In this document: positions 961 through 53,674 of the stretch, piece after piece
How positions within the stretch are numbered: the first letter of the stretch is position 1
Layout of the letters: every line of letters begins with the position of its first letter
From: an uncultured Gammaproteobacteria bacterium
GTDB taxonomy: Bacteria > Patescibacteriota > Patescibacteriia > Magasanikbacterales > UBA922
Length of the DNA stretch: 56,701 nt
Direction: 5' to 3'
NCBI GenBank assembly: GCA_964592785.1
Contig: CAZQHU010000006.1
Coordinates: forward strand, 1-56,701
Program-made: the position numbers and the translations under genes
The notes under the pieces: model-generated
The model's input: only the letters and a program-made list of their open reading frames with translations
Databases searched by the model: none
What the model was told of the DNA's origin: nothing

Positions 961-982
961 GATGTCTTAAATTGTCAAAGTT
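961..982 (-). promoter_or_regulatory. boxA-like rRNA antitermination motif
   Basis: Minus strand reads AACTTTGACAATTTAAG about 55 nt upstream of 23S, resembling rrn boxA (CTTTAACAATTT / CTTTGAAAAC). Confidence 0.45.
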
Positions 983-1221
983 CTGTCCAAAATCTCTTGC
1001 CACAGGTAAACTATAATTTTTATAAATTACCTGCGACCGAAGATTTGAGTTAAAAAAAGACCGCTTCCAAGCGGTCAATTTGACAAAAAAATTTGTCGGC
1101 CTAAGCGCTTGGATTAACTGAGTATAATTTGCTAGAAGTAAACATTGTGGTTTATCTAATTTTATATACCCAGAGGTCCAAGGATATTAGGACATGGTGC
1201 AATCATTTCAGATGCCTGACA

Positions 1222-48827: not shown

Positions 48828-49277
48828 TTATAAATTTTTTTTATTATTTTTAAATAATAAAAGTGTTACACCCCCCACAATCATTACATCTGCCAGATTT
48901 ATAATTCCAGTTAAGACTCGTAGGTAGTCTATAGTCACTCCAAATAAGATGCGGTCAATATAATTAGACAGGGCGCCAAGTATTATCAAATTTATTGCCA
49001 AGAACTTAGAACTCTGAATTTTGAACTCCGAACTTTTTACCAACCAAAAAATTAAACCTAATAAAATGAATGGTGTTACAAAAACAATTAACCAATTTGG
49101 CACTGGTAAAGAAAAAGCAATTCCTGTGTTGGCATAATATTCCCAACCCAACCAATTTTTCCAAAGATAAAAAGCTTGTTCTGGATTTAGACGAGCAAAA
49201 TATTTTAGTATTTGATCCAAACCAAACAAAAACCCGCTTATTAAAATATAAATTATTAAGCGGGTATTTTTATTCAT
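48828..49277 (-). CDS. lspA: Lipoprotein signal peptidase
   Basis: LDQILK, NTGIAFS, GALSNYIDR and INLADVMI motifs. Confidence 0.9.
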   Translation of the reverse strand: MNKNTRLIIYILISGFLFGLDQILKYFARLNPEQAFYLWKNWLGWEYYANTGIAFSLPVPNWLIVFVTPFILLGLIFWLVKSSEFKIQSSKFLAINLIILGALSNYIDRILFGVTIDYLRVLTGIINLADVMIVGGVTLLLFKNNKKNL

Positions 49278-49323
49278 AGTTTTATCAAGACCCATAAGCT
49301 ATTAGCTACGAGCTAAAAGTTAT

Positions 49324-49716
49324 TTAGACCTCTTGTGTCAGGGTTTTTTTGCATTCTACGCAAGCGCTGGAGGTTGGCCGAGCCAGTAATCTTTTTTCAT
49401 CAATGGAATGTCCACAATATTTACAAATGCCATAATTTCCTTTTTTCATTCTATCAATAGACTGGTTGACATCGCGTAATTCTTTTTCCAAAGCTAGTTC
49501 TAGCGGTTTATTGGTTGTATAAGCAGCAACTTCCATAGCATTTTCATCTTCCTTGTCTCCGTATTCAGGAAAAGTGGCATCATAGTCATCACTATCATGA
49601 GGGTTTTTTTTGGTGAATTTTTTTAGTTCGTTTTCTAAACGATTTTTTTCTTCTAGCAAGATTTTATTTATTTTTTCTAAAAAATCTTGTCCAAAAGCAT
49701 TTTGTTTCTTGTTCAT
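49324..49716 (-). CDS. dksA: TraR/DksA C4 zinc-finger protein
   Basis: YGICKYCGHSIDEKRLLARP..CVEC; promoter TTGACA-17-TACAAT at 49792-49764. Confidence 0.88.
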   Translation of the reverse strand: MNKKQNAFGQDFLEKINKILLEEKNRLENELKKFTKKNPHDSDDYDATFPEYGDKEDENAMEVAAYTTNKPLELALEKELRDVNQSIDRMKKGNYGICKYCGHSIDEKRLLARPTSSACVECKKTLTQEV

Positions 49717-49825
49717 ATACCTATATTTTAGCAGTTTTTTTAAAAAAGGTAAATAAGGATATTATTGTAGCCGATGTTATTATTTTTGTCAACCTACTCC
49801 TAATTAAATAATGGTTTTTTTGAAA

Positions 49826-49851
49826 AAAAGCAAATCCTGCCGAAGGCAGGA
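49826..49851 (-). terminator. Intrinsic terminator with a UUCG loop
   Basis: TCCTGCC-TTCG-GCAGGA-type stem followed by a T-rich tract on the minus strand. Confidence 0.65.
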
Positions 49852-49864
49852 ATTAATGGAGTAT

Positions 49865-50268
49865 AAAAAAAGGCGGATCGCGCCCTAGGTAATTGAATGG
49901 CTGACCGCCTTTACAGATCCCAGGGACGCGCCTATCAGGCAATCCCAGGGTTGAATCTTTGATTCAAGGCCTCGGAACGCCTGACTGGCAAGCCGTCTCA
50001 CAGGGACGGATCTTCCCTTTTACCACCCATGCTGGTGTTAGCTCCAAACGCTCACGGTTTTTTAGGCACGAAGCGCATTATCAGGAGTCACCAAAGGTTT
50101 CGGACTAGCTTTTGGATTTGTGGTTTTTACTTTTATTTTTGTTTTGTAAAACCTCCTAGTCACAAATTGTGCTATTAGCAGGAGTTAGTCCGAAAAATAG
50201 AGTAGTGAAAAGGGGACATGCTCCATCCGACGAGAGTCTGATAGAACATATTCTTTTTGTAATGATCT
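49865..50268 (-). ncRNA. Putative large structured ncRNA of unknown family
   Basis: Consensus promoter TTGACA-17-TATAAT (50303-50275), about 400 nt with many nested stems, terminal stem plus U-tract, no ORF with both RBS and start. Confidence 0.6.
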
Positions 50269-50350
50269 GGGTATATTATAACACATTTATGCACTTTTGT
50301 CAATAGTTGGCTTATTTTAGCAAAAAATGGCTTATTTTAGCCATTTTATC

Positions 50351-50486
50351 TGTGGATAAATGTATAGGATAGTATATACTTTTGGGTATTTATTATTAAT
50401 TTGTATATAACAATCTATACATTTATCCCCAATTTAGCTTATTAATCCCCAGACTTATCCACAGTTTGTATAGGATAGTGTATACA
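50351..50486. promoter_or_regulatory. DnaA-box cluster interleaved with TGTATA-N8-TATACA palindromes
   Basis: TGTGGATAA 50351, TTATCCCCA 50423, TTATCCACA 50455; palindromes at 50361, 50402 and 50467. Confidence 0.65.
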
Positions 50487-50588: not shown

Positions 50589-50870
50589 ATGAGTGATAGA
50601 TTATCTAGATTTGTTGATAATGGGAAAAAAGTTCCTCTTAAACCTGCTCCCATTGACAATTTAAACTACCCAAAGATTCCTGGTTCAGAAGAGCCATCCT
50701 TATTTAGTTTAAAAAAACAAGCTGAATCTCTTGAGAGGCAAATTGACAGACTAAGATTTAGGGGTGAGTCTGATTCATTGGAATTCAAGGCTTTGCAAAC
50801 TGAGTTGAGTGAATTGGAAAGACAAATAAGAGAATTAGAAGAGGGCAAAGCAATTAAAATGTTTTATTAA
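50589..50870 (+). CDS. Hypothetical protein with coiled-coil C-terminus
   Basis: 93 aa; upstream TGnTATAAT; downstream hairpin at 50874-50905. Confidence 0.65.
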   Translation: MSDRLSRFVDNGKKVPLKPAPIDNLNYPKIPGSEEPSLFSLKKQAESLERQIDRLRFRGESDSLEFKALQTELSELERQIRELEEGKAIKMFY

Positions 50871-52267: not shown

Positions 52268-53674
52268 TTATATTTTCAAATTAAAAATTTCCAGTTTTTC
52301 CAAGAGAACTAGGGCGCTGAAAATACCAAAAAAAATAAAAATTAAAAACATGATTATTTTTCGCCAAAGTTTGGGTTGGAAAATTTTTGGCAAACTTTTG
52401 TGGTTCAAAATAGATACGAGAGCAATATGAATAAACATGGCAAAGGCATTGATCACTGCTCCAAGAACAATGAGAGTTTTTGGTTCATAAAAATTCAGGA
52501 GAAAAAGAATAATACCAAAAGCGATTTGCAACCAGAGAAAAATATAATATATTTTGGAAAGTTCAATAGGCTTGTCAGGGGTTTTGTTTAGTTTAATAAT
52601 CGCCGCATTTTCTGCCATGATCCTACTAGTGGAGTCCATTATTCCTAGCTGTGTTTGAAAGAGCATAACAGAAACTACCAACAAAAAAAGTGTACCCACA
52701 ATAGGAGTGAGTATTTTGCCAATAGCCAGGCCTTCATTGATGACAAAATTAATTCCTTGAGCATTTCCTTCCAAACCAAAAGTCGTGGAATAAGACAGAA
52801 GCATGAGTAGGAGCATGGAAAGACTGCCAATAAACCAAAATACCATTAAATGTTCCAGGTTAATTGTTTTCCACCAAGCTTTGAAGCTAGCAATGTTTTC
52901 TGGATTGTTGATATCAAATTCTTCCCCAGTAAGTTTTATTTTTTGTTTTTCTTTACTGCGAAATAGTCCAGCGATCTTTTGAGAATAATAGCCCATGCCA
53001 TAACCTTTTTCTTTGATGTAAATTGATTGTGTTAAATTTAAATTTCCACCGGCCCCAGAATAAGCAAAAGCTCCGAGAAAAGTTGCTAAAATAATTCCCG
53101 GTGGTAAAAACCAATAACCATCACCCAGACCAATTAGGCCTTTGCCAAGATCAACCAGACCAGTTTTGGAACTCAGAAATATTGCCAGAATAAAAATAAA
53201 AGGCACCCCCAGAAGAATTATTGTTTTGGTGATTTTTTCCATCATGCCATAAACAGTTTTGCCAATACTTAAAATCAAACCAATAATTATTAACAAAGCA
53301 ATCGCCAGCCATTTAAAATTTTCTATTCCTAAAACAGTTGCCAAAACTTTGGCTGAAGCCGCAATAATTCCTGGCAAGCCAAAGCCCACAAAAGTAGAAA
53401 GAATAAACCAAAAAGTGGCCCATTTAAAAATTTTGGCAATGCCAACAAAAACACTCTCGCCTTTTACTAGAGCATAACGTTCAATCTCCATGTTCATGAA
53501 AAATTGAAAAGTGATTCCGAGTACTGCACCCCAAACAATTCCCAAACCATAATTGGAAGAAAGATATGGCCAGAGAATAACTTCCCCTGATCCCAATCCT
53601 AAAGCCAAAATTACAAAACTCGGACCAAGAATTTTTTTGATGCTAAGAGATTTCGGAAAATTTTTTGTTGTCAT
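52268..53674 (-). CDS. Nramp-like transporter
   Basis: GPSFVILALGLGSGEVILWP motif, about 11 TM helices. Confidence 0.75.
   Translation of the reverse strand: MTTKNFPKSLSIKKILGPSFVILALGLGSGEVILWPYLSSNYGLGIVWGAVLGITFQFFMNMEIERYALVKGESVFVGIAKIFKWATFWFILSTFVGFGLPGIIAASAKVLATVLGIENFKWLAIALLIIIGLILSIGKTVYGMMEKITKTIILLGVPFIFILAIFLSSKTGLVDLGKGLIGLGDGYWFLPPGIILATFLGAFAYSGAGGNLNLTQSIYIKEKGYGMGYYSQKIAGLFRSKEKQKIKLTGEEFDINNPENIASFKAWWKTINLEHLMVFWFIGSLSMLLLMLLSYSTTFGLEGNAQGINFVINEGLAIGKILTPIVGTLFLLVVSVMLFQTQLGIMDSTSRIMAENAAIIKLNKTPDKPIELSKIYYIFLWLQIAFGIILFLLNFYEPKTLIVLGAVINAFAMFIHIALVSILNHKSLPKIFQPKLWRKIIMFLIFIFFGIFSALVLLEKLEIFNLKI

Follow-up and report, generated by a model that had tools for sequence, protein, structure and literature searches.

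We describe here a locus on the minus strand of contig CAZQHU010000006.1 (NCBI GenBank assembly GCA_964592785.1), deposited as an uncultured Gammaproteobacteria bacterium and placed by its GTDB lineage in the Magasanikbacterales (Patescibacteriota). The window, that is, the whole stretch of DNA that was analyzed, comprises 56,701 nucleotides (nt), and all coordinates given below are window positions. Between a cluster of DnaA boxes and a DksA/TraR-family gene (dksA) followed by lspA, an RNA gene is read from 50268 to 49865. Its product is a genuine new large non-coding RNA (ncRNA) family: no model of Rfam 15 matches it and its fold is backed by covariation in at least 56 species, which strongly supports the candidate new large ncRNA class proposed by the initial annotation of this DNA. 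The promoter, the RNA and its structural elements, all on the minus strand, are as follows.

50275..50303, minus strand: promoter of the RNA gene, with TTGACA (50303-50298), a 17-nt spacer and TATAAT (50280-50275); the predicted transcription start site (TSS) is A50268.
49865..50268, minus strand: entire RNA, 404 nt, starting at the predicted TSS and including the whole U-tract.
50254..50268, minus strand: 5'-terminal single-stranded motif AGAUCAUUACAAAAA, family consensus AGWUCNUUNAAAA, boxA-like.
50216..50251, minus strand: P1, the 5' hairpin, 12 + 3 bp, from the single-sequence minimum free energy (MFE) fold and the RNAalifold consensus of 17 homologues.
50200..50214, minus strand: 5' strand of P2, CCCUUUU-C-ACUACUC, the long-range helix closing the 5' domain.
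50186..50195, minus strand: 5' strand of P3, UUUCGGACUA, from the core model.
50153..50184, minus strand: P3a, a variable hairpin within the P3 junction, with a CUCCU/AGGAG stem in the window.
50124..50147, minus strand: A-rich single-stranded junction, with its core AAAACAAAAAUAAAAG at 50145-50130.
50098..50107, minus strand: 3' strand of P3, UAGUCCGAAA, from the core model.
50034..50092, minus strand: P4 (GGUG-A-CUCC with GGAG...CACC; 50092-50084 with 50045-50034) enclosing P5 (50076-50048).
50015..50028, minus strand: 3' strand of P2, GGGUGGU-AAAAGGG, partner of 50214-50200.
49993..50009, minus strand: P6, hairpin CCGUC...GACGG, with both-side changes in 6 of 6 pairs.
49927..49992, minus strand: P7, a long hairpin with a variable tip, including TCAGGC/GCCTGA and TTGAATC/GATTCAA.
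49919..49923, minus strand: CUGGG, which forms a pseudoknot with CCUAG (49889-49885) in the loop of P10.
49865..49912, minus strand: 3' element, an intrinsic terminator made of P9 (AAAGGCGG/CCGCCUUU) around P10 (GCC/GGC), then U7 (49871-49865).
49835..49851, minus strand: second, back-up terminator hairpin, UCCUGCC-UUC-GGCAGGA with a U-run, read from the window sequence.

The promoter is of the sigma-70 type and, in a promoter scan of the window, matches the consensus at 12 of 12 positions, in keeping with the perfect promoter described in the initial annotation; matches of 11-12 of 12 with a 17-nt spacer recur in 37 of 39 homologues. At the other end, a terminator scan returns two terminator-like hairpins (49886-49870 and 49851-49835), the first of them GC-rich and followed by the U7 tract, where a stem with a U-tract and a second terminator had been claimed, and almost all of the 42 aligned 3' domains have a U-run after the terminator stem. 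The stretch between these signals is a GC island, with a G+C content of 50-58% compared with ~25% on either side. The median length of full-length homologues is 397 nt, and matches to the covariance models described below score 157 and 147 bits. Read from sequence signals, these features show that the RNA is a separate gene with a consensus promoter and an intrinsic terminator of its own, and it is predicted to be strongly, probably constitutively, transcribed. Directly upstream of the -35 hexamer, at 50309-50342, lies a hairpin with a T-run (AAAATGGCT-AAAATA-AGCCATTTTTT), followed by a second copy of GCTAAAATAAGCC, that may be a bidirectional terminator or an insulator before the RNA promoter; a related TTTAGCC...AA sequence is present in loci L007 and L009.

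Homologous loci were sought in the gap upstream of dksA by blastn, by iterated nhmmer and then by covariance models. The neighboring DksA-like protein assigns the organism to Candidatus Magasanikbacteria. The contigs carrying close and more distant relatives of this DksA all leave more than 700 nt before dksA free of genes, and scanning one genome per GTDB species, guided by DksA, yields 80 loci. Among the ~78 species-level loci with enough upstream sequence, the core covariance model matches 56 on the plus strand just upstream of dksA (E < 0.001), and 13 further loci give weak matches at the same position with filters off. Approximately six loci (e.g., L028, L030, L062 and L070; also L073 and L076) have a coding gene abutting dksA instead, and at this position before dksA, to which the statement is limited, those species have neither DnaA boxes nor the RNA. 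The gene before dksA is a divergent frame of ~460 amino acids in L028, L030, L062 and L070 (1-1424, minus strand), and L073 and L076 have shorter frames.

Several controls bear on the specificity of these matches. Viral decoys selected by pattern score at most 25 bits, which sets the practical noise level; the phage and plasmid collections contain no blastn match; and the 111 viral matches to a looser DNA pattern are all false by the covariance model. A stricter, RNA-only pattern applied to metagenome contigs gives 35 matches, 21 of which are true homologues by nhmmer. In this RNA-first scan dksA lies 70-435 nt downstream on the same strand in all 20 true homologues with at least 350 nt of downstream sequence, so the linkage is not an artefact of the DksA-guided collection. 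The upstream neighbors vary (ychF/DUF2164, a TrmB-like protein, a helix-turn-helix protein, rpsF-ssb, rnpA-yidD, a sigma factor and others). As judged from the sequences sampled, the family appears confined to Candidatus Magasanikbacteria, of the Patescibacteria or candidate phyla radiation (CPR). Some Magasanikbacteria-type loci bear discordant organism titles, among them L054 (Firestonebacteria), whose RNA is identical to that of L010 and L040, L086 (Acutalibacteraceae) and many third-party annotation (TPA) records titled ‘uncultured Gammaproteobacteria’; this suggests mis-binning or mislabelled submissions.

The single-sequence MFE of the RNA is -152 kcal/mol vs a mean of -116 for dinucleotide shuffles (z = -5.5), a stability reached by none of the 100 shuffles. 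A 47-sequence MAFFT alignment proved too divergent for RNAalifold and was replaced by two domain-wise covariance models (core and 3'), built from hand-annotated alignments, with which all matches were realigned. Because these alignments are fitted to the models, the pair counts lean towards structure; so read, 90.6% of cells are paired in the core domain (55 distinct sequences), with both-side changes in 38 of 43 pairs, and 89.7% in the 3' domain (42 sequences), with both-side changes in 40 of 41. The covariation score of the core is 0.516 vs 0.189 for column shuffles and 0.07-0.13 for slid controls; that of the 3' domain is 0.551 vs 0.204 for column shuffles and 0.05-0.13 when the partners are slid by 1-3 columns. 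Taken together, the two models give ~90% pairing and compensatory changes in 78 of 84 modelled pairs. As independent checks, a structure-blind ranking by mutual information puts the annotated pairs on top, and P1, P2, P3, P4, P5, P7 and P9 reappear when RNAalifold is given 17 sequences aligned simply with MAFFT. The count of G-U vs A-C pairs (336 vs 100) fits transcription from the minus strand. The test of covariation among homologues upstream of dksA, which the initial annotation had suggested, thus supports the fold.

The RNA folds into two domains. The 5' domain consists of hairpin P1 and then a three-way junction closed by P2, with P3 and P4/P5 as its arms, and the 3' domain of hairpins P6 and P7 followed by the P9/P10 terminator stem, locked by a pseudoknot. 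A hairpin of differing sequence, usually 8-14 bp long, is predicted at the position of P1 in nearly every homologue; P1 itself is modelled from single-sequence folds. P2 (core-model helices 1 and 2) is paired in 89% and 95% of cells, with both-side changes in 11 of 13 pairs, and P3 in 90.5%, with both-side changes in 9 of 9 pairs, while P4/P5 (core-model helices 5-8) range from 83 to 99%, the inner part of P4 and P5 covarying strongly. Within the P3 junction, P3a is present as a hairpin in all homologues and varies in sequence, length and GGAGG content. In the 3' domain, all 19 pairs of P7 have both-side changes, its two main segments are 89-92% paired and further distal pairs come from mutual information. 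Pairing reaches 94.4% in P9, with covariation in 7 of 7 pairs, and 94.5% in P10, with covariation in 4 of 4, and in the fold of the window sequence this terminator spans 49912-49869. The pseudoknot, whose columns are not fitted by the model, pairs in 80-89% of cells, and 4 of its 5 pairs show G-C/G-U/A-U exchanges, which we regard as moderate support from the alignment. Comparative sequence evidence, in the form of compensatory changes, thus supports helices P2-P7, P9 and P10, and more weakly the 3' pseudoknot.

Much of the structure read from the single sequence survives this comparison. The 5' hairpin claimed at 50248-50217 is P1 (50251-50216) and recurs in homologues; the claimed long-range helix CCCTTTT-c-ACTACTC/GGGTGGT-AAAAGGG and the 10-bp stem that it encloses are P2 and P3, both with covariation; and CCGTC/GACGG and TCAGGC/GCCTGA correspond to the covarying P6 and P7. 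The TTGAATC/GATTCAA helix does belong to P7, though only as its variable tip, which is missing in 3 of the 15 first-aligned homologues (L007, L015 and L024). Two proposals fall away: the helix AGATCC/GGATCT, put forward as closing the 3' domain, lacks conservation, with AGAU/AUCU pairing in only 44% of cells and the G residues belonging instead to the pseudoknot with the terminator loop, and the ‘sequestered AGGAGG’ lies in the variable P3a and is missing in many species. Among further candidates, an MFE-predicted pairing of the 5'-leader GAUC with GGGAU of the junction was rejected on inspection of the homologues, and a P3b mini-helix of the end of the A-tract with AGCU is 61% paired, an extension of P3 by C31-G106 fitting better.

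Against this background of freely covarying helices, three blocks resist change. The most conserved element of the family is the 16-nt A-rich junction AAAACAAAAAYAAAAG, which is unpaired in both the MFE and the consensus fold, as had been claimed of an A/C-rich tract; it can be parsed as six successive A-R-N triplets whose non-A bases are 6 nt apart. In P2, the ACU/GGU segment stays unchanged in 54-55 of 55 sequences, its U-G wobble occurring in all 55, and GGUG/CACC of P4 is nearly invariant in the core alignment. Invariance within a covarying RNA usually marks a contact or an active site. A search of the window for sites complementary to the A-tract returns nothing meaningful.

A fourth conserved element, the AGWUCNUUNAAAA motif, forms the first nucleotides of nearly all homologues. 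It calls to mind boxA, the NusB/S10 loading site of ribosomal RNA (rRNA) operons. Compared with the boxA consensus GYTCTTTAANA (PMC5725501), 24 of 39 leaders have at most two mismatches, vs 5.8% of shuffles, and the leaders of L013 and L019 match perfectly. The 23S rRNA leader of the window carries AGAACTTTGACAATTTAAG ~80 nt before the mature 23S 5' end (~965-985, minus strand), and the remaining boxA-like matches of the window fall within coding sequence. On sequence, the motif resembles boxA, and we treat this resemblance as a lead to a putative function, not as a demonstration of one.

The genes downstream of the RNA, on the same strand, are preceded by a promoter of their own.

49764..49792, minus strand: dksA promoter, TTGACA-17-TACAAT, matching 11 of 12 positions, downstream of both terminators.
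49324-49716, minus strand: DksA/TraR-family gene, best matched by the Bacillus yteA family at a score below the curated cut-off.
48828-49295, minus strand: lspA, which follows the dksA-like gene.

A gene for a YifB/ComM-type ATPase also lies downstream, and the order of a DksA-like gene followed by lspA recalls the ylyA-lspA arrangement of Bacillus subtilis. The spacer between the RNA terminator and dksA measures 53-277 nt and contains a sigma-70-type promoter (at least 9 of 12 matches, spacing of 16-18 nt) in 41 of 41 loci as well as in the window. The match reaches at least 10 of 12 in 30 of the 41 loci, vs 6% of shuffled spacers, and is typically TTGCCA-17-TATAAT; the separate dksA promoter read from the window is thus conserved across loci as a consensus match.

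On the other side of the RNA promoter lies a DnaA-box module.

50351..50463, strand not assigned: DnaA-box cluster upstream of the RNA promoter, with boxes at 50351-50359, 50423-50431 and 50455-50463.

No other cluster of at least three DnaA boxes occurs in the 56.7-kb window, and nearly every homologous locus likewise carries DnaA boxes ahead of the RNA. Of 39 loci, 26 have a pair of boxes spaced by exactly 32 nt, at about -195 and -163 relative to the TSS; in ten others an additional box falls within this pair, giving spacings of 12 + 20 nt, and roughly one locus in three has one more box, inverted and closer to the promoter, mostly near -95. The boxes are flanked by AT-rich DNA and by TTGTATA...TATACAA palindromes. 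In the form TTGTATA-N6-8-TATACAA, these palindromes occur at 50488-50465, 50420-50403 and 50380-50360 in the window, at ~1805-1835 and ~1895-1920 in L010 and at ~1748-1775 and ~1838-1860 in L011, and they may be the site of a second DNA-binding protein. By sequence and position, the module may be an oriC or a DnaA-controlled region of Magasanikbacteria. GC skew in the window has no turning point at 50.4 kb, which neither confirms nor excludes an origin.

We consider it likely, from these sequence features, that the product of this gene is a stand-alone, trans-acting stable RNA or the RNA subunit of a ribonucleoprotein (RNP). In such a mechanism, hairpin P1 near the 5' end and the pseudoknotted 3' end would protect the RNA from exonucleases; the A-rich junction, ACU/GGU of P2 and GGUG/CACC of P4 would be the surfaces likely to recognize a partner, be it protein or nucleic acid, or to serve as active sites; and the boxA-like 5' motif could recruit NusB/S10. 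The 12 of 12 promoter, the boxA-like motif and the neighboring DnaA boxes are rRNA-like signals that together suggest an abundant RNA with a growth-linked housekeeping role.

Two other accounts of the RNA itself, that it is a message or that it is a familiar RNA in disguise, can be judged from its coding potential and from the covariance-model scans. Short open reading frames do exist in the window, and the locus could in principle encode a small protein (24 residues, MFYQ..., or 33 residues, ...PDNALRA) with the structure incidental, an idea that is scarcely credible given how the frames behave: they are broken by indels in L007 and L009, the PDNALRA frame by indels of 1, 2 and 4 nt in homologues, and the AUG of the 24-residue upstream frame, which lies within the covarying stem P1, is UUG, CUG or GAG in other species. 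The substitutions are compensatory base-pair exchanges and not codon-like, and comparison of the homologous sequences shows that the RNA encodes no conserved peptide. A divergent universal RNA missed by the standard models, be it transfer-messenger RNA (tmRNA), RNase P RNA, 6S RNA or signal recognition particle (SRP) RNA, would explain the ~400-nt length, the strong promoter and the stable-RNA architecture, which fit tmRNA or RNase P RNA, as well as the ...PDNALRA frame that had been read as a hint of a tmRNA tag, and no such universal RNA was found elsewhere in the window. We nonetheless hold this to be very unlikely. At the gathering score, Rfam 15 (4227 families) finds only the 23S fragment and tRNAs in the whole window; at E < 10 the best match at the locus is a terminator-shaped one to the Pseudomonas rnk leader (E = 0.49), 14 divergent homologues have no family in common, with only microRNA-precursor noise on P7, and 12 further loci give only chance terminator-like or hairpin-like matches. 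The Rfam scan that the initial annotation had suggested thus matches no known family in the window or the 14 homologues, and its impression that tmRNA, RNase P, SRP and common riboswitch signatures are not evident agrees with the Rfam results at E < 10 and with ARAGORN, by which neither the window nor 527 kb of related loci contains a tmRNA. The tmRNA models (standard, alpha, beta and cyano) likewise give no match at E < 10 in the window and 14 homologues. The 5' end is single-stranded and the 3' end is a terminator with a U-tract, with no G3-U70 acceptor stem formed by the ends, no T-arm and no CCA end, and a tag frame with a resume codon and stop is absent, the ...PDNALRA frame being broken and its stop lost in L009. 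For RNase P there is no Rfam match and no P4-type long-range pseudoknot in the mutual-information scan, and when the conserved regions CR-I (GGAAAGUCC) and CR-V (ACAGAA...) are considered, the CR-I-like GGAAGAUCCG of the window varies in other species. The architecture is also not that of 6S RNA, the RNA being branched, two-domain and ~400 nt long with unpaired ends and no Rfam match.

The remaining two accounts turn on the fixed neighbors of the RNA. As a cis-acting leader of dksA-lspA, the ‘complex attenuator’ of the initial annotation, the fold would sense a signal and set either a stop at P9 or read-through; the RNA does always stand immediately upstream of dksA in the same orientation, it ends in an intrinsic terminator 53-277 nt before that gene, and the pair stays together while the upstream neighbors change. 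Yet a promoter match lies between terminator and dksA in all 41 spacers, and the terminator stem, the hairpin inside it and the pseudoknot all covary, as constitutive elements of the fold; in the window, a second terminator follows. The mutual-information scan contains no conserved anti-terminator pairing, the invariant segments being outside what covariation can assess; no riboswitch, aptamer or T-box model matches at E < 10, SAM-II giving only two weak matches (E ~4), both outside the RNA; and the ~6 species in which a coding gene directly precedes dksA, with no RNA there, indicate that dksA needs no RNA in cis. The promoter of dksA, the promoter of the RNA and the constitutive, covarying terminator together favor two back-to-back transcription units over an attenuator, and we judge a cis role unlikely. 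An origin-linked RNA, whose transcript or transcription would aid or time the initiation of replication or whose level would be set by DnaA, overlaps with a trans-acting stable RNA rather than excluding it, and as the primary explanation it is rather unlikely. It draws on the boxes upstream of the RNA in nearly all loci, with their 32-nt geometry and their status as the sole cluster in the window, on the AT-rich DNA and palindromes around them, on the dnaA-rpmH-rnpA-yidD genes just upstream in L009 and L227, and on a linkage that survives changes of the upstream gene; set against this, an elaborate covarying fold and a terminator are unnecessary for transcriptional activation of an origin, the GC skew does not turn at 50.4 kb, and the upstream genes are often co-oriented with the RNA, not divergent. 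Clusters of DnaA boxes also occur away from origins, as in datA/DARS of E. coli and in B. subtilis.

Several points also weigh against a stand-alone, trans-acting RNA. The TSS, 3' end, abundance and stability are all predicted, and any partner protein, ligand or target is putative. The strict adjacency of the RNA and dksA would also fit a cis role or co-transcription by read-through, and the downstream dksA promoter is a consensus match only. The A-tract is invariant and carries no covariation signal, so that its role may be that of a tertiary contact, a protein site or a Rho/S1 site. The window motif has three mismatches to the boxA consensus, which is gamma-proteobacterial, and position 5 of the motif varies freely. 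Finally, the scans for tmRNA, RNase P, 6S and SRP RNAs covered the window and related loci.

Several known systems share features with such a stand-alone RNA. The raiA motif RNA of Firmicutes and Actinobacteria is a structured RNA upstream of one stress- or growth-related gene, with its own promoter and terminator, and is proposed to act in trans. The RNA described here resembles it in being a structured ncRNA just upstream of one particular gene, with its own promoter and terminator, and differs in being about twice as long, beside dksA and not raiA, and in another phylum, with no sequence or structure match. It also resembles OLE, ROOL and GOLLD, members of the class of large ornate RNAs (reviewed in PMC12286853), in being large (at least several hundred nt), multi-helix, supported by covariation, lineage-restricted and found by comparative genomics, and the OLE gene adjoins the gene of its protein partner; in contrast to these it is smaller (400 nt) and CPR-specific, and a link to DnaA boxes is not a feature of theirs. 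The Rfam models of OLE, GOLLD, ROOL, HEARO and raiA do not match the RNA, and full-text literature searches return no description of it. Size, a long-range helix around an A-rich single strand and hairpins, a pseudoknot, a stand-alone gene and strong predicted expression recall tmRNA, unlike which the RNA has no tRNA-like domain, end pairing, CCA end or conserved tag frame. Its fixed synteny with an unrelated downstream gene is shared with 6S RNA (ssrS-ygfA in E. coli), which is tied functionally to RNA polymerase, as DksA is; 6S RNA is a ~180-nt rod with a central bubble and paired ends, whereas the present RNA is two-domain and branched with unpaired ends. rRNA operon leaders, finally, also combine a consensus-strength promoter with a boxA-like motif ahead of an untranslated, structured product, whereas here there is no match to large- or small-subunit rRNA, a core position of the motif is variable and any Nus binding would be putative.

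Other features of the window may be noted briefly. The 5' part of a 23S rRNA gene occupies positions 1-908 on the minus strand and runs off the window end; these 908 nt cover only positions 1-645 of the model, which leaves ~260 nt extra, either inserted or as an expansion. Within the window the 23S gene is not preceded by a 16S gene, so the rRNA genes are apparently unlinked. A gene for a 93-residue protein (50589-50870, plus strand), divergent from the RNA, has no Pfam match and its synteny is not kept in other species; further upstream, a 468-residue multi-pass membrane protein (52268-53674, minus strand) likewise has no Pfam match.

Large folded bacterial RNAs beyond rRNA, RNase P, tmRNA and group I/II introns are rare, and OLE, GOLLD, ROOL and raiA each opened lines of research. 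The genomes of CPR bacteria are ~1 Mb and streamlined, which makes it unlikely that a conserved, covarying and strongly promoted RNA of 400 nt is dispensable. The family offers a testable object, with a defined fold, three invariant surfaces, fixed neighbors and rRNA-like signals, and its alignment and models are usable as an annotation marker for Magasanikbacteria, while the conserved DnaA-box module is a candidate origin for the phylum. A more specific proposal, which we consider doubtful on the sequence evidence in hand, is that the RNA may be the subunit of a lineage-specific RNP coupled to growth control, with rRNA-like expression and DnaA control beside the replication origin, and that it may work with the DksA-like protein, RNA polymerase or DnaA. 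If true, ultra-small CPR bacteria would have a novel type of regulatory or catalytic RNA that acts on transcription or replication, and a regulator or ribozyme tied to growth control would represent biology specific to organisms that are not yet culturable alone.

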